From: an uncultured Ruficoccus sp. | GTDB taxonomy: Bacteria; Verrucomicrobiota; Verrucomicrobiia; Opitutales; Cerasicoccaceae | Reading direction: 5' to 3' | Assembly (NCBI GenBank): GCA_965140785.1 | Contig: OZ223514.1 | Location: 180,289 to 244,288 of the forward strand | DNA: 64,000 nucleotides | Shown here: one piece after another, positions 39,296 to 49,731 of the stretch | Layout: every line of letters starts with the position of its first letter | How positions within the stretch are numbered: position 1 is the first letter of the stretch | Notes under the pieces: model-generated | Seen by the model: the letters and a program-made list of their open reading frames with translations, nothing else | The model's database searches: none | What the model was told of the DNA's origin: nothing | Program-made: the position numbers and the translations under genes

Positions 39296-41131
39296 CTAGC
39301 GCACAGGCAAAGCGGTTGAATTTTCGGCAAAATGTTCCTCCACTTTAGAGAGAGAAGGCGTAACAGTCGGCGCAATATTTGCTCTCTCAGACTTGCGCAT
39401 GCGCTTAAAGCATTCGCGAACCCCCTGGTAAGCCTCTTTGGGGCGACGGTACTCGTCCAGCGTGCCCTTATTGTTAAATGTGCGCGGACGTCCGAGCGAA
39501 CGACCGCCACTGTAAGTTCGCATATCTGAGAAGTGCCATAGCGCGATGCCACTGCATCTGGGATTGCCCAACACGAGTTCACACGCTCGCTGCAGATAAC
39601 GGTTCTGATAGGTCTCGGAGAAAAAATCATTGTGAGTATCTCGCCAACCATACAGCGCTTCGGCTCCAATCTCCGAGATCATCACCGGCTTATCTTCAAA
39701 TCCGGCTTGGTCGATGTGTTCAAAGATCTCGCGCAGTTGGGGTTGAATCAAATCCAACGGCTGTGCCGCCTGCTCACAAGCATACCAGCCCGGATAGGTA
39801 TTGATGCTGATGAGATCGACCAAATCGTAATGGAGGTCCGTTAGCGCAAACATGGTGGCGTAGGTTACCAGACGCGTCGGATCCAGTTCTTTTAAAGCCC
39901 TCGTGGCTTCCTCAAAAGCGCGCCGAACATACGGCGCGTCACTGCCCGCTTCATTGAGGAAGCCCCAGATAATGACCGATGGGTGGTTCGAACTGGCGCG
40001 CACCATGTTACGCAGTGACTCAGCGTGATCCGCGTGCCATTTCTCACTGGAGAATGTTTTCTCCCGCTGCCCCCACCCAAGGTTTTCCTCCCATACCAAG
40101 AGCCCGAGCTCGTCACAAAGGTCCAGGAAGCGTTGATCCTGAGGATAATGCGATCCCCGGACGAAATTACACCCCAGGTCCTTCAGCATTTGAATATCCG
40201 CAAGCATTTGCAGGGGCGACGTGGCGGGCCCACCGGAAGGATGCCACTCATGCCGGTTGTAGCCGCGCAATATCAAGCGTTCACCGTTCAGCCAGAGGGC
40301 ACCGTCGCGGGCTTCAACATGGCGAAGCCCAAAGCGTGTTTCGACTAAATCACCATCCGGCAAGGCGACACGCAAGCGGTGCAGGTGCGGCGTTTCCGGA
40401 GACCAAATTCGCGGCGAATCAACACGCAAGTCAATCACCGCGCAATTGCCTGTCAGCTTAACCGCCTGATACGTTCTCACCGGCTCTTCATCAACCTGGA
40501 CGGACAAATCGATTTGGCGTACAGGGCACTCCGCGAGCTGTACCTTTACCCTCAGCAAGCCCTCACGATAGCCTCCTTCGACCAACGTCTGGACATGGTC
40601 GATGAAAGCCCCCCGGGCTGGCAATAGCCGCATCGTCACCGGGCGGATGATTCCTCCATATTGGTAGAAATCGAAATACTCCTCGTGCATAGGCACGCGT
40701 TCGAAGTCGTAACGGTTATCCACCAGCACCAGTAATTCACGATCCTGTGATTCTGACTCGGCAACATCTACTTCAAAAGGTGCATACCCACATGCATGCT
40801 CTTTTACGGCGACACCATCGATGCATAGGCGGCACCACATGGAAACAGCCCCAAAAGTGATGCGCGCGCGCTGGCCCGAAGGTATGTAAAAGCGCCTCCG
40901 ATAGACCGCCAGCCCACGCTGGCCCGCATGATCCGGAAGCGCGTCGAATGCCGATGGAACAAGTGTCTTGCCCCACTCGATGTTATCGCAAGGATCGAAC
41001 GAGTCGGGATCAATATTACCCAAAAACGCAAACTCCCACAGATCGTTCAACGGTATCTCCGGGGTAAAGCGCAAATTCGCAGGTGCGTTTTGCATGTCGA
41101 ATATATGACAGGTTTCGACTTGCTCTTGCAA
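39296..41131 (-). CDS. GH2 beta-glucuronidase/beta-galactosidase-like hydrolase
   Basis: YGGIIRPV, GYNRHE, RGSHYPQ, NHPSVIIWGFLNE, ISEIG and NNKG motifs (NxKG is typical of glucuronidases). Exact start uncertain. Confidence 0.85.
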   Translation of the reverse strand: MQEQVETCHIFDMQNAPANLRFTPEIPLNDLWEFAFLGNIDPDSFDPCDNIEWGKTLVPSAFDALPDHAGQRGLAVYRRRFYIPSGQRARITFGAVSMWCRLCIDGVAVKEHACGYAPFEVDVAESESQDRELLVLVDNRYDFERVPMHEEYFDFYQYGGIIRPVTMRLLPARGAFIDHVQTLVEGGYREGLLRVKVQLAECPVRQIDLSVQVDEEPVRTYQAVKLTGNCAVIDLRVDSPRIWSPETPHLHRLRVALPDGDLVETRFGLRHVEARDGALWLNGERLILRGYNRHEWHPSGGPATSPLQMLADIQMLKDLGCNFVRGSHYPQDQRFLDLCDELGLLVWEENLGWGQREKTFSSEKWHADHAESLRNMVRASSNHPSVIIWGFLNEAGSDAPYVRRAFEEATRALKELDPTRLVTYATMFALTDLHYDLVDLISINTYPGWYACEQAAQPLDLIQPQLREIFEHIDQAGFEDKPVMISEIGAEALYGWRDTHNDFFSETYQNRYLQRACELVLGNPRCSGIALWHFSDMRTYSGGRSLGRPRTFNNKGTLDEYRRPKEAYQGVRECFKRMRKSERANIAPTVTPSLSKVEEHFAENSTALPVR

Positions 41132-41165
41132 ATTTGCTCTTACTGTTCACGATTAGTAACCGGAC

Positions 41166-42212
41166 ATGCCAATTAATCAACGAGAGCTTGCAAAGCGGGC
41201 TGGCGTGAGCCAGACAACAGTCTCGCTCTGCCTCCGCTCCCATCCCTCAATCCCCAAAGGGACGCGGGAGCGGATACTCCGGATAGCACGTGAACTCGGC
41301 TACAAGCAGAATCCGTTGGTAGCCAGCTTGATGAGCGAAATTCGTTCGAATCGCCATGTCTCCTCTCAAAGTTGCATTGCGCTGTTAGTGGATGCCGAAG
41401 ATGAAAAAGAGTGGTTTTGCCATGAGCTGTTTCGGCAGCAGTATGAAGGCATGCGCGCCAGAGCCCTCGCTCTAGGATTTCGCACCGAAGTGTTCTATGC
41501 AGGACAAAAAGGAACGACCCTCCGCGCGATTGACCGTATCCTCCACACGCGCGGCATCCGGGGCCTCATTCTCGCAGGCTCCCGAAGAAGAGCTTACGAT
41601 CTCTCACTTATCCGATGGGCCGATTACGTCTGCGCCACGATATCGTACACCTGGGATCAGCCGGCGGTGGATCGTGCCTCGGCCCACCACCGCCATAATG
41701 TGGATATCGTTTTTCAGAAATTATCGGAACTCGGCTACTGCCGGATTGGTGTTTCATTAAGCCCTCATGCCCGAAAGGCTTCCGACCGAAACTGGCTCAG
41801 CGGCGCCCTACTCTGGAACGAGCTTCAACCCAGTAAAAAGCGTATTCCGTTTTTCGTGGCCGAGCAAACGGAGCATAATACGGAAGCCTTTGGCCGATGG
41901 ATAAAAAAATGGAAGCCAGACGCCATTGTCACACTGGATGGCTGGGAAAAGTTATGGCTACACAAACTCGGCTTGAGCACTCCTGACGATATCGGACTGG
42001 CATGTGTCAACCGCTCCACCGAAAGCCGGGTATCGGGCGTCTACGAAGACCATGATTTAATTGGTGCTGCCTGTATCGATCTTGTCTCCGCCAAATTGCA
42101 ACATAATGATTTCGGGCTGCCAGAGCGCCCCCATCTCCTATTGATCGAAGGACGCTGGGGTGATGGGGAAACTCTTCACCATGAAAAGGGCTGCCTCAGC
42201 CCTACGACCTGA
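41166..42212 (+). CDS. LacI-family transcriptional regulator
   Basis: QRELAKRAGVSQTTVSLCLR HTH and ARELGYKQNP hinge; divergent from the GH2 gene. Confidence 0.88.
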   Translation: MPINQRELAKRAGVSQTTVSLCLRSHPSIPKGTRERILRIARELGYKQNPLVASLMSEIRSNRHVSSQSCIALLVDAEDEKEWFCHELFRQQYEGMRARALALGFRTEVFYAGQKGTTLRAIDRILHTRGIRGLILAGSRRRAYDLSLIRWADYVCATISYTWDQPAVDRASAHHRHNVDIVFQKLSELGYCRIGVSLSPHARKASDRNWLSGALLWNELQPSKKRIPFFVAEQTEHNTEAFGRWIKKWKPDAIVTLDGWEKLWLHKLGLSTPDDIGLACVNRSTESRVSGVYEDHDLIGAACIDLVSAKLQHNDFGLPERPHLLLIEGRWGDGETLHHEKGCLSPTT

Positions 42213-42310
42213 TTCGCTTTCACAGAGGGATGATCGCACCAATCGTACTGGTCAAACATGGTCAATTTACCGAACCTAGCAGGATCGAAAATCCGAGGCC
42301 CATCCACCGC

Positions 42311-42379
42311 CTAGAGGCTCCCAAGCAGCGCAACCGACGCCACGAGAACGCCCAGATCAAGCGCGGTGGGGTACCCAAG
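42311..42379 (+). pseudogene. Possible IS5-family transposase fragment
   Basis: LEAPKQRNRRHENAQIKRGGVPK resembles the PKQRNxREENxxIKxG segment of IS5 transposases, as recalled. Confidence 0.4.
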
Positions 42380-42460
42380 CGCATCGCCCGAAACTGCCTC
42401 GATATGAAGCAAACGTAAACAGCACGGAGCCGTCACGGGATGCCTCCGAGCTGACCCCAC

Positions 42461-42799
42461 TCAGTTGACTCCGGTCTGCGCGTCGAGCAACTGGTGCAGC
42501 TTCTCCGTTCTCCCGGGCAGGAGGTTTAGGTTGCCTTTGAGGGATTCGGTGAAGGCGTTCTGGAGGGACCAGAGGGTGCGGGGGGTGAAGCAGGCGTGGG
42601 TGGGTTGGCGCCACTCGTGGAGGACTTTGGGGATGTGCTGGTTGGAGCAGACACCCTTGTCCACGGCGCGGATGATGAGGTCGTGGGCGGTGGGGTCGCG
42701 GAGCGGAGTGCGTTTGTAGCGCTCGATGCGGCGGTCTTGTTCATCGAAGCGGGAGACGAGGCGTTGGACGGCTTGATGGGCCAGAGCGCCGAGGTCGCG
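42461..42799 (-). pseudogene. 3' half of a DUF932-family gene (diverged duplicate of 46604-46942)
   Basis: 339 bp colinear with 46604-46942; similarity stops about 11 bp before the first 74-bp element. Confidence 0.8.
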
Positions 42800-42810
42800 A
42801 TTAGGCCCGA

Positions 42811-42884
42811 GGGGGCAGGTCAATAATTTAAATGTTGATTGTTGTCTGACTTGTGTGGTTATTCTAAATTATTGACACGACCTC
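42811..42884. repeat. 74-bp miniature inverted-repeat element, copy 1
   Basis: GGGGGCAGGTCAATAATTTAAA...CTAAATTATTGACACGACCTC, followed by TTCGGCT. Confidence 0.85.
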
Positions 42885-42890
42885 TTCGGC

Positions 42891-43043
42891 TCACAGCAAA
42901 ACTCTGTAGTGAAAAACAACTCAAGTATTCTCCGTAAAAAAATAAACAAAATTGGAAGAGCTAATATGCAGAATGAAATAGCAGCCAAGACATCCAGTGT
43001 CATTAAGGCTGTAGATAAAGCTGTAAATGATAGTAATGATTGA
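42891..43043 (+). pseudogene. Cassette 1 leader: apparent 3' gene fragment
   Basis: 50 stop-free codons in AT-rich DNA from the element boundary (SQQNSVVKNN...KAVNDSND*), ending 30 bp before the next ATG. Confidence 0.55.
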
Positions 43044-43073
43044 CCTCAGAAATTCCACTAATGTACCGTAAAT

Positions 43074-43712
43074 ATGGATGCTATTAATCACATCAAACAT
43101 CTCCATGATGGTCGGCTTAGGGAAATATATGAGGGGGATGCGATCTCATTTATTAATAATATTTCAAGTGTTAACGTAAATGGAGAATATGACCTAGATG
43201 ACTATAGGGAATGTGCATTTGGAGAATATTGGAGGAGGAGGATTTTGAGCCGAAAAACACTTGCTTATGATGATATTAGACATATTATTGAATATCGCCA
43301 TTTGTGGGGTTCATTATCCGTGATTGGTGAGTTTGCTAGGCTTGATTTAATAGCCCCATATTTATTAAACGATTTAATAATTAGCAAGGATGAAGACGTT
43401 TGGTCGTATCGGCAAATATCTGCCCGTAAAATCGTTCATACAGTGAAGGCTTTGATAGAAATTGAAAACCACATGGACTGTTTGACGATCATTAGTGCAA
43501 TAGACCGCCTCATCGAACTTAAGAATGTTGTTTGGGCGATTGAGGAGTTGTTGCCGCTATTACCATACAGTTGCTTGTGTTATCTTTATAACCGACTTAC
43601 AAAAGAAAAAATATTAACTCGTTCTCACCGAGGTCATTTGAATTCTCTTATAAAAAAGGTACTGCAGGAGAAAACCCAGAAGGAGTCAAATCCAGGAGGG
43701 CCATGTCAATAA
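43074..43712 (+). CDS. Cassette 1 ORF, AT-rich hypothetical protein (212 aa; candidate immunity protein)
   Basis: Long ORF in AT-rich DNA between elements 1 and 2; its TAA is supplied by element 2 (CCA TGT CAA TAA). Confidence 0.7.
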   Translation: MDAINHIKHLHDGRLREIYEGDAISFINNISSVNVNGEYDLDDYRECAFGEYWRRRILSRKTLAYDDIRHIIEYRHLWGSLSVIGEFARLDLIAPYLLNDLIISKDEDVWSYRQISARKIVHTVKALIEIENHMDCLTIISAIDRLIELKNVVWAIEELLPLLPYSCLCYLYNRLTKEKILTRSHRGHLNSLIKKVLQEKTQKESNPGGPCQ

Positions 43713-43770
43713 TGTAAATGATGGTTGTTGTCTGACTTGTGTAGTTATTCTGAATTATTGACATGACCCC
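43697..43770. repeat. 74-bp miniature inverted-repeat element, copy 2
   Basis: AGGGCCATGTCAATAATGTAAA...TGAATTATTGACATGACCCC; core TTGTTGTCTGACTTGTGT shared with copy 1. Confidence 0.85.
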
Positions 43771-43814
43771 TTCGCTTGACCCCTTCGCTTTCAATTGACC
43801 CCTTCGCTTTCAAT
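43764..43814 (+). repeat. Junction tandem repeat: 13 nt + 2 x 19 nt
   Basis: TGACCCCTTCGCT / TGACCCCTTCGCTTTCAAT / TGACCCCTTCGCTTTCAAT. Confidence 0.9.
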
Positions 43815-43976
43815 GGGCCAAGGGTAAATATGGGGGGGGCTCCCTACTTTAAATTTAAGTGGTCAGAAGTACGTTTTGAAAACTATATTACTGAGGAGAT
43901 TCCTCGTTCATCGATAAGGCTGCCTTCAGGATTTGATATGTGGAGAGCGATATTTGGTCAGCGAAAAATTAAATAG
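43815..43976 (+). pseudogene. Cassette 2 leader: apparent 3' gene fragment
   Basis: Frame open from the repeat (GPRVNMGGAPYFKFKW...MWRAIFGQRKIK*), ending 24 bp before the next ATG. An internal ATG means it could instead be a small ORF. Confidence 0.5.
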
Positions 43977-44000
43977 GTGTAAGCTTTAAATTAGTGTAAT

Positions 44001-44333
44001 ATGACAGTTGTTGTTTGGGCTTTACTTTCGTTATTCACGGTCAAGATCATTTGGAATCTTTGCGTGCCCTATATACTTTTAATGCGGTTCCGAAAGGAGC
44101 CTGACAAAGAAACTGGTTGGATTTCCATGAAAATTGTGGTCGAAATTTTTCTTTTGCTGCTGGCTGTGGGTATGTCGGCGCTGAGCACTGGCCAGGCCTT
44201 GGTAAATAAACCGCTAACTGTAGCAAAATGGGGTATTATTGCTATTATATTTACCTATTTACATTTATTTATTGTTTGCGGTATTGGGGGATGGATAATT
44301 AAAGTGTTTTATTCACAAGATAAGAAGGGATAG
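44001..44333 (+). CDS. Cassette 2 ORF, small three-TM membrane protein (candidate immunity protein)
   Basis: 110 aa, three hydrophobic helices, AT-rich; stop lies 2 bp before the junction duplication. Confidence 0.7.
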   Translation: MTVVVWALLSLFTVKIIWNLCVPYILLMRFRKEPDKETGWISMKIVVEIFLLLLAVGMSALSTGQALVNKPLTVAKWGIIAIIFTYLHLFIVCGIGGWIIKVFYSQDKKG

Positions 44334-44335
44334 AG

Positions 44336-44373
44336 GAAGCGCTCGAAGGGGTCAGAAGCGCTCGAAGGGGTCA
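44336..44373 (+). repeat. Junction tandem repeat: 2 x 19 nt
   Basis: GAAGCGCTCGAAGGGGTCA repeated perfectly at 44336-44354 and 44355-44373. Confidence 0.9.
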
Positions 44374-45367
44374 TGTCAATAATTTAAATATTGATTAGCC
44401 CCTGTGTTTGTGCTGAGGTGTGCGTATGGCAAGGGCTGTTCGCTTTCAGTTTCCGGGTGCGATTTACCATGTGCTCAATCGTGGGAACTACCGTAAGGAT
44501 TTGTTTACGGCGGGTGAGAGCGGGGCATGGTTTGTGCGGGCGCTGCAGGAGGCCAGTGAGCAGTGTGGCTGGCGTGTCCATGCCTACGTGGTGATGAGTA
44601 ACCACTATCACCTGGTGGTGGAGACGCCGGAGCCGAACCTGGTCGATGGGATGCATTGGCTGCAAACGACGTTTGCGAGCCGCTTCAATCGCTCGATGGG
44701 CGAGCGCGGGCATGTGTTTCAAGGCTGCTACAAGGCGCTGCTGGTGGCACCGGGTCCTCACTTTACGGGGGTGGTCAATTATGTGCATCTCAACCCCGTA
44801 CGCGCGGGCCTATGCACGCTGGAGGATTTGAGGAGCTATGGCTTGGGCAGCTATGGCCACTTTTTTCGCAAACATCGTCCCGACTGGCTGGTGCGCGCGG
44901 AATTCCTCGGCCAACTGCACCTGCCCGACAGCCTGAAAGGGATGAACACTTACGCAAAAATGCTAGCATTGGCCGATGAGCAAGACCCCGAAAAACGGGC
45001 GTCGCTGAGTCGCGAATATTGCCGGGGCTGGCTGATCGGTGACAAGGCCTACCGCGAGCAAGTCCTGGAGCGCATGAACAAGCATGAGTTGCGGGGGAGC
45101 CACTGCGGTGACGATGTCCGCAACCTCAACGAGTTTCGTTGGGAACAGGCGCTGGCAGAACAACTCAAGCAGCACGAAAAATCGTCAGAAGACATTGCCC
45201 GCGCCCCCAAGGCCGCCGATTGGAAAATCGCAATCGCCCGGCACATGCGCACCCACACCCGCGCCACCAATCCCTGGCTGGCAAAAAAGCTCTCCATGGG
45301 CCACCCCTCACGCGTCAGCAACTTGATATACAATCGCGACATTTAAATTATTGACATGACCCCTTCG
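44363..45367 (+). mobile_element. RAYT-like HUH transposase element bounded by perfect 27-bp inverted repeats
   Basis: CGAAGGGGTCATGTCAATAATTTAAAT (44363-44389) and its exact reverse complement (45341-45367). Confidence 0.85.
44426..45346 (+). CDS. REP-associated-type tyrosine transposase (Y1/HUH, IS200-like fold) with C-terminal HTH-like extension
   Basis: MARAVRFQFPGAIYHVLNRG, HUH motif MSNHYHL, HVFQGCYKA and catalytic YVHLNPVRAG; GAGGTG RBS; the stop codon lies inside the right inverted repeat. Confidence 0.9.
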   Translation: MARAVRFQFPGAIYHVLNRGNYRKDLFTAGESGAWFVRALQEASEQCGWRVHAYVVMSNHYHLVVETPEPNLVDGMHWLQTTFASRFNRSMGERGHVFQGCYKALLVAPGPHFTGVVNYVHLNPVRAGLCTLEDLRSYGLGSYGHFFRKHRPDWLVRAEFLGQLHLPDSLKGMNTYAKMLALADEQDPEKRASLSREYCRGWLIGDKAYREQVLERMNKHELRGSHCGDDVRNLNEFRWEQALAEQLKQHEKSSEDIARAPKAADWKIAIARHMRTHTRATNPWLAKKLSMGHPSRVSNLIYNRDI

Positions 45368-45418
45368 GCTGATTCGAACTAATTCAAGAATAGATATAGA
45401 TATAACCTAATAATAATA

Positions 45419-45685
45419 ATGGATTATTTAATCGCTATAAATAGGATATTTTTTTCTTTGACGGTTGTGTATTGGTATAATGTTATTATTGATTTTATTG
45501 ATTTTTTCGTAAAATACAATATTGGCCATTGTATATTGCTTGCTGATAATTCGTCTGTATTTTGGCATTCTTACTTTTGGTTGTGCTTTGGGAGTAATTG
45601 TATATTATCGACATTTATTTTTTTAAAATTAAAAAAACACTACTTTATTTTTATTTTTTTATGCGTACCGTATAGTTGGCGATAG
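45419..45685 (+). CDS. Cassette 3 ORF, very AT-rich hydrophobic protein (88 aa; possibly degraded)
   Basis: ORF between the transposase right end and a degenerate left end at 45709; preceded by a short open frame (LIRTNSRIDIDIT*). Confidence 0.5.
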   Translation: MDYLIAINRIFFSLTVVYWYNVIIDFIDFFVKYNIGHCILLADNSSVFWHSYFWLCFGSNCILSTFIFLKLKKHYFIFIFLCVPYSWR

Positions 45686-45708
45686 TTGCGACGCCAGGGG
45701 CAGAAGAT

Positions 45709-45845
45709 GGGGTCGAGACAATAGCTTAAATGTTAGTTGTTTCTGTGTTTGAGTGCTGTTGAGGAGATTTCCTCCTTCATGTTCTCCCAGCTAAAAAGAA
45801 GCCGTCCATGAGAGACCGGCTTCTTTTTAATCATCCCCACCGGGT
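45709..45845. repeat. Degenerate left half-element plus terminator hairpin, a diverged copy of 46431-46557
   Basis: GGGGTCGAGACAATAGCTTAAATGTTAGTTGTTTCTGTGTTT vs GGGGTCATGTCAATAATTTAAGTGTTGGTTGTTTCTATGTTT; hairpin at 45793-45828 matches 46508-46542. Confidence 0.75.
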
Positions 45846-45859
45846 GCGACGAACCTGAA

Positions 45860-45933
45860 GGGGTCGGGTCAATAATTTAAATGTTGATTACTGTTTGACT
45901 TGTGTAGTTGTTCTAAATTATTGACATGACCCC
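45860..45933. repeat. 74-bp miniature inverted-repeat element, copy 3
   Basis: GGGGTCGGGTCAATAATTTAAA...CTAAATTATTGACATGACCCC, followed by TTCGGCT. Confidence 0.88.
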
Positions 45934-45941
45934 TTCGGCTT

Positions 45942-46025
45942 TGCACAATTAACGTACATTATGTGATGAATACTAAAACTAGCCAAGTTGATGATCTTAA
46001 AATCTTTTTAGCAGGAGTGCGATAG
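45942..46025 (+). pseudogene. Cassette 4 leader: C-terminal fragment resembling a polymorphic-toxin tip
   Basis: CTINVHYVMNTKTSQVDDLKIFLAGVR*; its TAG ends 1 nt before the next ATG. Confidence 0.6.
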
Positions 46026-46026
46026 T

Positions 46027-46410
46027 ATGAAAGTTGAAGTAATTGAAAATAACTTTAGCGGCTGTCCTCCAGAATTGAAAACGTCTGGGTTTACGGCTGA
46101 AACTTTAGTTGATTTAAGCATCGGTGAGGAGCTTAATGTGTATGGTATGTCAGTGTTTTATGGCGTAGTTTTCGTTCTAATTAAAGATCATAGTGGCATC
46201 TATTCTTGGATGCCGAATTGGCTTTTTAAAGTGTTGGATGGTCGGTTCCCTAAGGATTGGGTATCAAACTTCTTTCATGATAACCCAAGTTGTATCATTG
46301 GGCCGGAGATAATTGCCTCTGACCTTGAAAGATATAGTCGATTTATTGAGCAAGACCCTGACCTTGTTACGAAGATGAACCTGTGGGTTGACTCAATGGA
46401 GTCGGGGTAA
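46027..46410 (+). CDS. Cassette 4 ORF (127 aa), candidate immunity protein
   Basis: AGGAG RBS; LSIGEELNVYG...WMPNWLFKVLDGRFPKDW pattern recalled from small proteins encoded behind Rhs-type toxins. Confidence 0.7.
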   Translation: MKVEVIENNFSGCPPELKTSGFTAETLVDLSIGEELNVYGMSVFYGVVFVLIKDHSGIYSWMPNWLFKVLDGRFPKDWVSNFFHDNPSCIIGPEIIASDLERYSRFIEQDPDLVTKMNLWVDSMESG

Positions 46411-46430
46411 CCCCATTGGGGGTCACTAAA

Positions 46431-46472
46431 GGGGTCATGTCAATAATTTAAGTGTTGGTTGTTTCTATGTTT
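46431..46472. repeat. Left half-element closing the array
   Basis: GGGGTCATGTCAATAATTTAAG, preceded by an extra GGGGTCA at 46419-46425. Confidence 0.8.
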
Positions 46473-46507
46473 CGCTAAATTTGCATCAGCCACGACCTTG
46501 CAGCTAT

Positions 46508-46542
46508 AAAGAAGCCGGCCATGAGAGGCCGGCTTCTTTTTT
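46508..46542 (+). terminator. Intrinsic terminator, probably bidirectional, between the array and the convergent DUF932 gene
   Basis: 13-bp stem AAAGAAGCCGGCC/GGCCGGCTTCTTT, 6-nt loop, T-tract. Confidence 0.75.
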
Positions 46543-46603
46543 ATCATCCCCCCCGGTTAAGACCGAGGAGCGGAGTTGCGAGAGTCCTCCGGGCTGAGCC
46601 TTC

Positions 46604-47360
46604 TCAGTTGAGCCCGGCCTGGGCGTCGAGCAGTTGGTGGAGGCGCTCGGTTCTCCCCGGCAGGAGGTTGAGGTTGCCTTTGAGGGCTTCGGTGAAGGCG
46701 TTCTGGAGGGACCAGAGGGTGCGGGGTTGGAAGCAGGCGTGAGCCGGGTGGCGCCACTCGTGGAGGACTTTGGGGATGTGCTGGTTGGAGCACACGCCTT
46801 TGTCCACGCTGTGGATGATGAGGTCGTGGGCGGTGGTGTCTCGGAGCGGACTGCGCTTGTAATGTTCGATGCGGTGATCTTGTTCATCGAAGCGGGAGAC
46901 GAGGCGTTGGACGGCTTGATGAGCCAGTTCGCCGAGGTCGCGCAGGATGAACCGGGTGTGTTTGCGGGCCAGCTTGATTTCTCCGGTGAAGGCGAGGTTG
47001 CTGCACACCAAGACCTGGGTGCTGGCGACGATGCCAGCGGGGAAGGTCTTGTCGTGGGAGTTGCGGATGCCGACGACCCAGCGGTAATCCCGGGCGGTGT
47101 CGCCTGCGCCGATTTCCAACAAGCCGAAGAAGCGGGTGGCTTCGCGGTTGAGGGCGTAGGCGGAGTTGACGATGGGGAGACCCGCGTTCGAGCAGGGCGA
47201 CCTCGACCGCGTTGAGCACGGTGAGGTGCGGGACGGGTTGCCACGTGCGGGTGGAAGGAGGCGTCGGGGCCTCCGCGATCCGGCTGCGGCTGACGGCGCG
47301 ATCGCCGCAATGCAGCAGGAGGTTGCACCGGTTGGGTTTGGCCTCCAGCACGATTGCCAT
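46604..47360 (-). pseudogene. DUF932-family gene with a +1 frameshift near 47180
   Basis: AGGAGG RBS and ATG at 47360 (MAIVLEAK...VALLERG); continues in another frame as LPIVNS...IRNSHDKTFPAG...VCSNLAF; length 757 = 3n+1. Confidence 0.75.
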
Positions 47361-47393
47361 AGAGGGCCTCCTTTCTTTGTGACCTGCGAAAGC

Positions 47394-47426
47394 AAAAAGG
47401 CCCGGATTCAGGTCGTAATCCGGGCC
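47394..47426 (-). terminator. Terminator-like hairpin just upstream of the DUF932 RBS
   Basis: Minus strand GGCCCGGATT-8nt-AATCCGGGCC-TTTTT. Confidence 0.55.
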
Positions 47427-47840
47427 CATAAGACAGCGAAAACGCTCGCTTCTCAAGAATATTTAACGCGCGGGAGGGCTGTGTTGCGGCGACAGGTGCC
47501 CGGGGATATGTCTTTCAGGTTACGTGACCGCTATCCCAAAAAGTGAAAACAGGAAAAGTGGCGTAAGATAATTGTAAAATCACCTCGCATGCCGCTTTTT
47601 TCCTAGATTTTAACATGGCGGGAAACCGCCTAAATATGTCCGGTTTTGAAATAGATCTGTCCGTATTCGGACAGATACGTCGATTTTACACTAGGGTCAT
47701 TTATTTACGACATGATAGGTCCCTAGCAACCGTTAGGTCCCGGAGCTCCGGAATATCCTCCTTGTGGCCGTAGGCCTCGGGGTCGTTTACTTGAATCGCC
47801 CTAAGTCCTTATAGATACGGCCATTTCGGCTGATTTAAAC

Positions 47841-47916
47841 TGGTGGAGCCGATCGGGATCGAACCGACGACCTCGTCATTGCGAACGACGCGCTCTTCCA
47901 ACTGAGCTACGGCCCC
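47841..47916 (-). tRNA. tRNA-Ala (anticodon CGC)
   Basis: GGGGCCGTAGCTCAGTTGGAAGAGCGCGTCGTTCGCAATGACGAGGTCGTCGGTTCGATCCCGATCGGCTCCACCA; 76 nt cloverleaf, G3-U70 pair, encoded CCA. Confidence 0.97.
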
Positions 47917-48129
47917 ACGCTTGAAAAGAGTACCTATGAGCGGTGTCGGGGTGTAGGTCAAGGCAAAGCAGCCGGCAAGATGAGGGGAAAATGTGAGGGG
48001 AGGAGGCGCAGAAGTGACTTCGGATCGCCCGTCTCACCGCTGGGGGAATGTCCGTCGGGAGTGGACATAAGGGCTTGTCAAGAGGCGGGCTTTGGCCCAT
48101 ACCCGCCGGGATAGTCCAAAAAAAACACT

Positions 48130-48546
48130 ATGGAAAAAACCCTGATTATTCTCAAACCCGACTGTATGGAGCGCAAGCTGTGGGGCATCCTGCTCGACCG
48201 CTTCGCCAAGCTGGACCTGGACATCATCGCGTGCAAGATGATGAATCTCGACAGCGAACTGATGCGTACCCACTACGCGCACATTGCTGACAAGCCGTTT
48301 TTCCCGAAGATCGAGGAATTCATGGGCTCGCGTCCGGTTATTGTGATCGTCCTGAAGGGCGCGCATGCCATCCGCCGCGTGCGTTCCGTCATCGGCGAGA
48401 CCGACTCGACCGCCGCGTCGGCAGGCACGATTCGCGGGGACATGGGCACGGACAAGATGCTCAACCTCGTGCACGCCTCCGATAGCCTCGAAACGGCCGA
48501 AGTCGAGATCAAGCGCTTCTTCGGCGACGAGCCGCTGTTCGAGTAG
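48130..48546 (+). CDS. ndk: Nucleoside diphosphate kinase
   Basis: ILKPD, HYAH, GTIRGD and NLVHASDS motifs. Confidence 0.95.
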   Translation: MEKTLIILKPDCMERKLWGILLDRFAKLDLDIIACKMMNLDSELMRTHYAHIADKPFFPKIEEFMGSRPVIVIVLKGAHAIRRVRSVIGETDSTAASAGTIRGDMGTDKMLNLVHASDSLETAEVEIKRFFGDEPLFE

Positions 48547-48602
48547 GTTCGTTACCGCTTTCGGGCGACTTTGACACTCTCTCACGTCGTCAATTTTTAT
48601 GC

Positions 48603-48638
48603 AACCGGCTCCGCTTTACCGCGGTGCCGGTTTTTTTT
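48603..48638 (+). terminator. Intrinsic terminator after ndk
   Basis: AACCGGCTCCGC-loop-GCGGTGCCGG followed by 8 T. Confidence 0.75.
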
Positions 48639-48657
48639 GCTGGGAGGGGGGGTGGCA

Positions 48658-49731
48658 TTACCACTGTTGGATATCCAGATTATCGAGGTCGGGGATGCTC
48701 ATGAGAGGGCTATACATGAGACTTTCAGGATTACTGGAGCGTGGATAGCCGTAGAACTGAACGCCGATGGTCCGTTTGAGGAGCTTCAGGGTACGTTCGT
48801 TGAAGAGACGGTTGTTTGGGGGAGTTTCTCGATGTATGGGGGCGTAGCGACCCGTGGCGACCAGGGACAGGTGCTTGTCCCAGTGGACGGAAAAGACGAA
48901 GCGCAGGTTCGTATTGGCCAGGTAGATGTCTTTTTCAGTTAAAAAGATTACCGCCGTGTCACGGCTTCGCTCCGGCAGACGGGCGGCGATGGCGGCCATG
49001 CCCTGGTAAAAGGAATCGGCGACGTACTGGTCGCGCAGCAGATTGGGTTGGGCGAAGTCGCAGGCGGCGGCCGGGGTGCATTTGACGTTAAGATTGAGGT
49101 CCTTGCTGAGCCAGTTGGCCAGTTCGTTGGCAAGCGGCTCGGGGAAACCGTCGAAGGGGACGAGGTAAACCTCGACAGTGGAGAACTCAGCAGGGGCCGC
49201 GGCAGTCTGGTTCGGCACGGGCCAGGGCTCAGGTGCCCGATCAAGCCCGTAGGTGCCGACCAGCCGGATGACCAGTCCGATGATGACGGCCACAAAAATT
49301 GACCAGCCCAGTCCGCAAAGAAAGCCTTTGGTATTGAAGGATTTGCTATCGTTGTGCTCTTCCCATGCGCCCGGAGGAAGGGGCTCGTTTTTGGTGGCGA
49401 TAGACGCGCATTCGGCCATCTCCAGTTCGAAATACTCGACCTCGGCATCAGTGAACTGCTGCATGAAGGTGCAGATAAAAAACTTGATGACGAGAAAATC
49501 ACCCTTGCGGTAAACGCGTCCAGTGAGCCGGATTTTCTTCACATCAAACGTAACGAGATTGCGCCAGACACTGCCTCGGCGCGCTTCCCATATCCCGTGC
49601 ATAGTCGGCACCGCCTCGAAGCCCCGGCTGAGCAGGTAGGCTTTGGCGCGATTCATACCCGCTTCGCCGGCTTCTGCCCACGGAATGACGATCCGCTGCA
49701 TGTGCGAATGAAACGGATCTTTCGGCTTCAT
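48658..49731 (-). CDS. Membrane-anchored protein with an archaemetzincin (M54)-like domain lacking the zinc motif
   Basis: One TM, then VYLVP...RDQYVAD...LTEKDIY...FVF...RTLK layout; no HExxH. Confidence 0.55.
   Translation of the reverse strand: MKPKDPFHSHMQRIVIPWAEAGEAGMNRAKAYLLSRGFEAVPTMHGIWEARRGSVWRNLVTFDVKKIRLTGRVYRKGDFLVIKFFICTFMQQFTDAEVEYFELEMAECASIATKNEPLPPGAWEEHNDSKSFNTKGFLCGLGWSIFVAVIIGLVIRLVGTYGLDRAPEPWPVPNQTAAAPAEFSTVEVYLVPFDGFPEPLANELANWLSKDLNLNVKCTPAAACDFAQPNLLRDQYVADSFYQGMAAIAARLPERSRDTAVIFLTEKDIYLANTNLRFVFSVHWDKHLSLVATGRYAPIHRETPPNNRLFNERTLKLLKRTIGVQFYGYPRSSNPESLMYSPLMSIPDLDNLDIQQW

Follow-up and report, generated by a model that had tools for sequence, protein, structure and literature searches.

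The fourth cassette of an island of low guanine-plus-cytosine (GC) content in the genome of an uncultured Ruficoccus sp. (assembly GCA_965140785.1) is very probably an orphan module of a polymorphic-toxin system, composed of the stub of a toxin gene and an immunity gene directly behind it. The island lies in a stretch of 64,000 nucleotides (nt) of contig OZ223514.1 (C43 in our numbering), here called the window, whose coordinates are used throughout; the genome is 90.85% complete and is assembled in 50 contigs. The module comprises the following features.

45930..46025, + strand: putative toxin stub: the final 25 codons of the C-terminal domain of a polymorphic toxin, beginning at 45945/45948, and the TAG after them
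46013..46017, + strand: AGGAG Shine-Dalgarno sequence for the immunity gene, within the stub, 9 nt 5' of the ATG
46027..46410, + strand: candidate orphan immunity gene for a protein of 127 amino acids (aa) of an unnamed family; intact open reading frame (ORF), modelled as an SH3-like beta-barrel with C-terminal helices

The stub occupies an open frame that begins after the TGA at 45927-45929 and stops at the TAG at 46023-46025. Its whole translation is PLRLCTINVHYVMNTKTSQVDDLKIFLAGVR, running PLRLCT-INVHYVMNTKTSQVDDLKI-FLAGVR with INVHYVMNTKTSQVDDLKIFLAGVR as the C-terminal end directly before the TAG, and its first ~5 codons are junction sequence unrelated to the toxin. A single base, T 46026, separates the TAG from the ATG at 46027. 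The first-pass annotation of this DNA had described the same stub, the AGGAG inside it and the TAG one base before the ATG, and the sequence and its ORFs bear this out. We searched a profile of eight toxin C-terminal domains against all 107,963 stop-to-stop segments (at least 20 aa) of the six frames of the genome, and the stub was the sole match (E 1e-5, 28.5 bits; next best E 5.3), so its likeness to the toxin exceeds chance. Profile positions 74-98 of 99 align with the stub residues TINVHYVMNTKTSQVDDLKIFLAGV. When the toxin domain of one homologous locus (L005, see below) was used as a single query against the genome, again only the stub was found, with 65% identity over residues 77-99. By this alignment the stub would be the 3' quarter of the toxin domain, i.e. 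its last two strands. The homology to the toxin begins at 45945/45948, ~8 nt past the end, near 45938-45940, of a palindromic element that borders the cassette on its left.

In other bacteria stand-alone homologues of the 127-aa protein mostly follow genes for toxins that end in this domain. We collected 16 homologue loci with their flanks, namely five from species genomes (21 pattern matches, 6 confirmed), ten from metagenomes (43 pattern matches) and one (G275) from a 400-genome sample of the window's phylum, all retrieved via a six-sequence alignment sharing the motif PxDWICN. Nine of them (L003-L006, L008, L013-L015 and L027) have a toxin gene with this domain at its end directly upstream, and among the stand-alone homologues of ~125 aa this holds for 9 of 10. 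The upstream proteins end in ...GSTA.LAKGTTL.R.LREQLA.EQAM..P.AG......M.DPRWPAS.GWVKMQQ....GG..I.VHY..N..TG..DDFK(I/V)....*, with a divergent end (...VHYVRDPKTGELMDFKFKH...) in L027, which the toxin profile nevertheless recognizes at E 1.3e-4, L027 not being among the sequences from which the profile was built. The upstream protein of L003 has 1273 aa and YD repeats; Rhs/YD repeats and DPxGL-type core ends are visible upstream in L003, L005 and L027, with the Rhs core end in L005 and L027, and L013 presents an orphan toxin domain starting after a stop codon. The toxin stop is separated from the immunity start by 1-12 nt in L003-L006, L013 and L014 and by 28 nt in L008 and L015; for L027 the translation yields an estimate of 15-28 nt. 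We read a GTG start in L008 and L015, which would make their gap 1 nt, as in L005 and in the window. That homologues of the ORF should be preceded by genes with such a toxin tip had been set beforehand as the test of the first-pass annotation, and the 9 of 16 loci, or 9 of 10 stand-alone genes, answer it in the affirmative; the tip motif that it had given recurs in the nine loci as I.VHY..N..TG..DDFK(I/V)..G..*. Its description of the cassette as a toxin tip with an immunity-like ORF is thus right, because the upstream genes of the homologues are polymorphic toxins ending in that motif.

The partner toxin domain is found on several kinds of delivery protein. With the last 100 residues of the L005 toxin as query, it was identified at the end of 74 longer proteins (316 candidates), of which 23 carry PF05593, PF25023 or PF03527, which we take to be RHS-type domains, three carry PF07591 and one carries PF05488, presumably PAAR- and HINT-type carriers. 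Among the source names, “RHS repeat-associated core domain-containing protein” occurs several times and “filamentous hemagglutinin” once. A single C-terminal domain on many delivery scaffolds is named as a hallmark of polymorphic toxins in passages of Zhang et al. 2012 (PMC3482391). The domain itself (~90 aa) has no Pfam or NCBIfam match. In 40 aligned toxin domains D54, W57, W63, H80, D91, D92 and K94 are invariant. Its AlphaFold2 model, with a predicted local distance difference test score (pLDDT) of 87.5, shows a helix and then three long strands, and in the VIA-align comparison 16 of the 25 best rows were RelE, ParE, HigB, YoeB, YafQ or BrnT toxins, with toxins of contact-dependent inhibition (CDI) placed lower. 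A RelE/ParE-like (BECR) fold is therefore suggested by the model, albeit weakly, and from such a fold the domain would probably be a ribonuclease (RNase). Like the RelE/ParE toxins, the domain is predicted to have an N-terminal helix followed by an antiparallel sheet, its best structural neighbours being RelE, YoeB, ParE and HigB, and its last strands carry the conserved H, Y, N and DD.K. It differs from them in its fusion to secretion and delivery modules, where they are paired with an antitoxin, and in having no sequence match to any Pfam toxin family and a Z score of only 5.2.

The 127-aa protein belongs to a widespread family that sequence libraries do not name: it has no Pfam or NCBIfam match, and scans of 72 family members with both libraries gave nothing meaningful. 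A HMMER search of 1.84 billion representative proteins yielded 274 family proteins at E<=1e-3, 65 at E<=1e-10 and one at E<=1e-30, the best match of the 127-aa protein being P0002 with 57% identity. Most members are ~125 aa long, and a few are tandem duplications or fusions. The consensus of an alignment of 72 sequences (A1) reads T.G.EYEV.A..VF.G....DD...P.W.P.WLF...D...P.DWICN.F......GP.F.A.....Y..MVE, which agrees, in the part ..T.G.EYEV.A..VF.G...W.P.WLF...D, with the pattern that the first-pass annotation had given for partners of such toxins. W78 and G92 are invariant in the alignment, and the protein of the window retains both, as well as P63, F67, P93 and Y103. A word-index protein search with the single sequence returned only the query itself and with the alignment 22 proteins, all “hypothetical protein” or unnamed and without a precomputed Pfam domain; the ESM Atlas gave 30 clusters for the protein, all unnamed, and a sequence search of the PDB with the family profile gave a chance match only (E 0.86). 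The AlphaFold2 model made with alignment A1 (pLDDT 96.7, predicted template modelling score 0.89) shows a small beta-barrel followed by helices. Among solved structures no immunity protein stood out in the fold searches with this model, and Foldseek had no match at E<=0.001. The predicted fold is thus SH3-like and has no close solved relative. One further family member (P0064, 206 aa) combines YD-repeat (Rhs) remnants and the immunity domain in one ORF and is probably another decayed toxin-immunity junction.

The module is termed orphan because the genome holds no full toxin: six-frame searches with the profile and with the L005 domain, in an assembly of the above completeness, found the 25-codon stub only. 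A second immunity gene of the family was likewise not found in it (next best E 0.36). No toxin could be produced from the cassette, since three quarters of the domain and every delivery part are missing from the stub, and what it would preserve is the toxin stop codon and the ribosome binding site of a tightly coupled immunity gene. The 127-aa ORF is predicted to encode a small cytoplasmic immunity protein. As the genome is without a full toxin, the gene would serve to protect the cell when a competitor delivers this toxin; the unit would make the immunity protein only and neutralize the toxin of neighbouring cells. Two further features bear on its expression.

45921..45949, + strand: promoter-like site, TTGACA (in the right REP arm), a spacing of 17 nt, and CACAAT
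46508..46539, no strand assigned: terminator-like hairpin (stem of 13 bp) where the immunity gene and the DUF932 gene converge

The promoter-like site has 10 of 12 matches and is the best of 11 such sites in 42700-46700, where they are not enriched (11 versus 8.2 +/- 3.2 in shuffled sequences); its promoter function is suggested by these letters. With a -35 box in the arm of a repetitive extragenic palindromic (REP) sequence and a terminator after the gene, the cassette looks like a self-contained expression unit.

Several observations weigh against the orphan-module reading. The alignment of the stub and the toxin extends over just 25 residues. Seven of the 16 loci are without an upstream toxin: in six of them (L007, L009-L012 and L016) the domain forms the N-terminus of ~450-aa GDSL-like hydrolase proteins, and in L017 a truncated 91-aa ORF lies on a contig of 31% GC. 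The fusion proteins have 448-461 aa in L007, L009, L012 and L016; their C-terminal GDSL-like part matches PF13472 at ~1.5e-7, just below the cut-off, in the three that were scanned (L007, L009 and L016), and L010 and L011 were classed by the identity of their upstream sequence to that of L009 alone. Because of these six loci the fold cannot be reserved for immunity. Since retrieval relied on PxDWICN, the loci sample one subfamily, 30-45% identical to the first sequence of the query alignment, and leave out the neighbourhoods of the closest relatives, P0002 (57%) and P0003 (44%); L006 and L014 are near-identical, so that not every locus is independent. For both partners the structural matches are weak: for the toxin model the top match was RelE1 (9g12_B) with Z 5.2 and a root-mean-square deviation of 3.1 over 74 aligned residues, and Foldseek gave a best E of 0.27 and nothing at E<=0.001, whereas the immunity model matched only SH3 domains in Foldseek (best E 0.12) and reached a best Z of 5.4 in VIA-align. 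Finally, with the genome 90.85% complete, its missing part might contain a full toxin. Were the cognate toxin indeed encoded in the unassembled ~9%, the gene would not be an orphan but a spare or displaced copy; the 50 contigs leave room for this, and repeated Rhs genes, for which assembly often fails, are hard to recover. We regard it as very unlikely, considering that the toxin profile has no second match and that no second immunity gene of the family appears in the assembly. Also to be weighed is that the ORF is a relic or has another role, namely as an SH3-like binding module with no present immunity function which is kept beside a toxin remnant only by chance. The fusions of the same domain to GDSL-like hydrolases in 6 of 16 loci speak for it, but the ORF is intact, the family residues are conserved, the fold is predicted with high confidence, and the ribosome binding site, promoter-like site and terminator are preserved, which renders it highly improbable. 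An orphan immunity gene behind a toxin stub thus remains our preferred reading.

The module was acquired horizontally, as follows from its GC content of 36-43% compared with 59% for the genome, from the lack of a DNA match of cassette 4 in five relatives and from the finding of the immunity family in just one of the 400 other genomes in the phylum sample. The low GC content extends over the island: between 42.8 and 46.5 kb the GC content is 31-43%, with 55-66% in the flanks and 59.0% in the genome, of which only 5.8% of 200-nt windows fall below 45%. The island sits between a LacI-like gene (41166-42212) and a tRNA-Ala(CGC) (47841-47916). The cassette ORFs, starting at 43074, 44001, 45419 and 46027, are all on the + strand, with copies of the palindromic element in between, and an RAYT-like gene (RAYT, REP-associated tyrosine transposase) lies among them. 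The palindromes resemble REPINs, which are doublets of REP sequences.

42810..42891, no strand assigned: REPIN copy at the left end of the array, abutting a 5'-truncated DUF932 fragment
43074-43712, + strand: cassette 1 ORF, 212-aa protein without family match
43696..43777, no strand assigned: REPIN copy between cassettes 1 and 2
44001-44333, + strand: cassette 2 ORF, 110-aa membrane protein without family match
44349-44397 and 45341-45388: half copies (REP arms), an inverted pair around the transposase gene
44420..45346, + strand: RAYT-like Y1 (HUH) transposase, 308 aa, inside the REP pair
45419-45685, + strand: cassette 3 ORF, 88 aa, AT-rich, without family match
45691..45739, no strand assigned: half REPIN 3' of cassette 3, followed by a copy of the terminator
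45859..45940, no strand assigned: REPIN-like palindrome of 82 nt, left border of cassette 4
46413..46461, no strand assigned: half REPIN (left arm and part of the spacer), right border of cassette 4

The arms of the 82-nt element (AAGGGGTC.GGTCAATAATTTA / TAAATTATTGACATGACCCCTT) are inverted with a spacer of 34 nt between them; as a DNA hairpin the element folds at -19.2 kcal/mol (z -6.0), and none of 200 shuffled sequences folds as well. Ten aligned copies have the sharp ends GAAGGGG...CCCCTTCG. In the window the arm motif occurs 8 times, compared with 0.01 expected, and genome-wide (up to 4 mismatches) 32 times, at ~8 loci on 5 contigs and every time beside low-GC DNA. A scan of 41000-49000 with Rfam found the tRNA only, a mir-335 match on the REPIN being due to chance (27 bits versus a gathering score of 64). 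The transposase matches PF01797 (4.4e-9, 36.9 bits, over the cut-off of 23) and NCBIfam NF047646, REP_Tyr_transpos, the latter at 1e-17 and 64.3 bits, below the cut-off of 80. A second RAYT-like copy at C10:480129-481052 has 99.4% amino-acid identity, which indicates recent mobility of the RAYT, and each copy lies between inverted REP arms in low-GC DNA. The transposase and the inverted half copies are thus arranged like an RAYT and its REPs, the 82-nt elements being REPIN-like doublets. A derivation of the REP arm from the DPxGL-coding end of Rhs genes was considered and dropped, as the only full Rhs gene of the genome carries no REP arm there.

Elsewhere in the genome, further REP-bounded cassettes contain known immunity families. 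Of 17 ORFs scanned from its REP loci, seven had no match at E<=0.1. An Imm30-family protein (2e-14) is encoded in a REPIN-bounded cassette at C39:142698-143141. At C48:189946-190763 (minus strand) a 101-aa ORF whose start lies inside a REPIN, and whose match to the AHH nuclease domain (E 0.005, below the cut-off) is confined to the C-terminal half of that domain, is followed by a DUF4274 protein (8e-12), clearly a second cassette of stub and immunity gene. The further matches were to Sel1, DUF3997 and HEPN, with one Kelch-like match below its cut-off. One array lies 3' of the sole full Rhs gene of the genome (C10:287983-294612), where BLASTP found no similarity between the stub on C10 and the C-terminal part of the adjoining Rhs gene, between the two small membrane ORFs there, or between the 110-aa ORF of the window and a 105-aa ORF there. 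Of the four other genomes of the genus, three contain the REP arm, and of 26 additional relatives one does; there, too, it borders low-GC ORFs. REP-bounded cassettes of the congener G001 encode Imm22/DUF4284 (1.8e-6) and DUF2750 (1.3e-28), and in G007 an Rhs toxin (DUF6973) with a downstream ORF stands beside a REP arm; 11 of 15 proteins scanned from the REP cassettes of relatives had no match. In this genus, modules of this kind have REPIN-like hairpins at their borders, and these hairpins are linked to an RAYT-like transposase. The “immunity capture” that the first-pass annotation had envisaged is borne out only in part, in that other cassettes bounded by the same repeat carry known immunity families.

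The part played by the hairpins may be viewed in different ways. In the module of the window, a rearrangement at the REPIN probably took away the toxin part, whether catalysed by RAYT or brought about by recombination between REPIN copies; an active role of RAYT and REPINs in capture is a lead with odds well below even. The REPINs might be bystanders, MITE-like (miniature inverted-repeat transposable element) units that prefer AT-rich foreign DNA and merely provide homology for deletions, with the orphan module resulting from the ordinary displacement of toxin C-termini known for loci of Rhs and of type VI secretion systems (T6SS). We put this a little short of an even chance: orphan immunity arrays arise without such elements in Vibrio cholerae and at Rhs loci, as described in sections of PMC5361080, one array of the present genome lies behind its sole full Rhs gene, and the REPIN ends are sharp like those of inserted units, but the array of the window adjoins no Rhs gene and the truncation points coincide with REPIN ends. 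The last point can also be taken as a sign of an active device for capture and shuffling, a transposase-based analogue of the integron, in which the Y1 transposase would excise and insert cassettes bounded by REP hairpins as single-stranded DNA and build arrays of orphan immunity genes. Such a device would add to the orphan-module reading without excluding it. It is favoured by the RAYT-like gene inside a REP pair within the array, by the position of all 32 REP arms beside low-GC cassette DNA, by toxin stubs starting within a few bases of REPIN ends (cassette 4 and the AHH stub on C48), by the same pattern in congeners and by the two nearly identical RAYT copies with their sign of recent movement. 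However, no cassette was found at two places, nor an empty versus a filled site; the REPIN ends, sharp on both sides, point to REPINs rather than cassettes as the mobile unit; G001 has REP-bounded cassettes and no RAYT match by DNA; and among the matches listed in full-text searches no paper ties RAYT or REPINs to immunity cassettes, the one with both sets of words handling them separately in the matching passages. We therefore consider an active device rather unlikely, and somewhat more so its specific form, in which a domesticated or mobile RAYT and its REPIN hairpins constitute a capture platform for orphan immunity genes, a single-strand HUH counterpart of integrons and rAID-1. A classical integron with attC cassettes and an IntI integrase, which imperfect palindromes of 82 nt between co-directional, promoter-poor cassettes might call to mind, is scarcely credible: the repeat flanks a Y1 transposase instead, and we rejected it as the best TIGR02249 match in the genome has 84.4 bits versus a cut-off of 265 and there is none on C43.

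That orphan immunity genes can stand behind partial toxin genes is familiar from the accounts in PMC5361080. Compared with the Rhs, CDI and T6SS orphan modules, as far as they are covered in parts of PMC5361080 and PMC3482391, the cassette of the window shares an immunity gene without a working toxin and a partial toxin gene before it, as well as low GC content, similar modules as neighbours and a toxin domain that occurs on different delivery proteins. In contrast to them, its array is not 3' of an Rhs, vgrG or cdiA gene, the stubs abut REPIN-like palindromes and lack a conserved core for recombination, and no Pfam or NCBIfam model exists for the toxin domain or for the immunity family. The rAID-1 arrays of Bacteroidales have a recombinase, skewed GC content and integron-like repeats according to excerpts of Ross et al. 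(10.1101/471110). With these the island has in common co-directional arrays of orphan immunity genes against the toxins of other organisms, a GC content below that of the host and repetitive intergenic sequences; it contains at least two co-directional genes of 31-43% GC with such sequences between them. It differs from them, on the same portion of that report, in its lineage and in having a Y1 (HUH) RAYT-like transposase with its REP doublets. No match to a tyrosine recombinase was found on C43, and the Y1 transposase is the sole enzyme of the island. Known REPIN/RAYT systems, as outlined in portions of 10.1101/2024.07.17.603846, resemble the present one in a Y1 transposase flanked by inverted REPs and in hairpin doublets of ~80-100 nt scattered in the genome. 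Here, however, the 32 arms are concentrated at 8 loci and border foreign low-GC cassettes rather than lying in housekeeping intergenic regions, and there are two RAYT copies, whereas the RAYTs in those portions are single-copy and vertically inherited with many dispersed REPINs; the transposase also misses the curated RAYT cut-off. What is distinctive here is thus an unnamed toxin-immunity pair, arrays without a tyrosine recombinase and borders made of the REPIN-like hairpins of an RAYT-like Y1 transposase.

Orphan immunity genes decide on the survival of contact-dependent attack, and the known routes to their collection come from few lineages, namely displacement at Rhs/T6SS loci and the recombinase-linked rAID-1 of Bacteroidales. 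The conserved gene order across distant phyla links a toxin domain to an immunity family, both without a name in any library, and thereby provides a testable pair. If an assembly of the cassettes by RAYT and REPINs were true, it would represent a third route to immunity collections, and REPIN/RAYT systems, on whose function there is no agreement, would gain one in the assembly of defence cassettes. A capture platform of this kind would trim toxin-immunity modules to the immunity gene, give it an outward -35 box and spread cassettes to several chromosomal sites in the genus.

The remaining features of the island concern its other cassettes and its boundaries. For the 212-aa protein of cassette 1 the ESM Atlas gave nothing usable (best score 0.86). 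In cassette 2 a 66-aa stub-like ORF beginning at the REPIN precedes the 110-aa ORF. The cassette next to that of Imm30 on C39 (143668-) begins in a REP arm with ‘MTPSG’, looks like a headless toxin domain and is followed by a Kelch-like ORF. A 5'-truncated copy (42461-42823) of a DUF932-like gene and the gene itself (46604-47395, minus strand) bracket the array; their 3' parts form direct repeats of 86% identity (42436-42735 and 46579-46878), the left copy being cut at the REPIN. DUF932 copies also adjoin a REP cassette elsewhere in the genome (C10:630334-630909) and occur in multiple copies at contig ends of the relative G003. The terminator hairpin has a copy at 45788-45850 (87% identical), and the whole unit of half REPIN and terminator hairpin is duplicated at 45691-45850 and 46413-46563, around the REPIN and cassette 4, so that cassette 4 may have been inserted into this unit or duplicated with it. 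A degenerate REP-arm-like sequence at 47809-47841 (76% to 45348-45380), directly beside the 3' end of the tRNA-Ala, may be a former boundary of the island. Immediately beyond many REP arms, e.g. at 43771-43808 and 44336-44373, there are short tandem repeats of 13-19 nt that contain GACCCCTT and look as if the tip of the arm had been reiterated.

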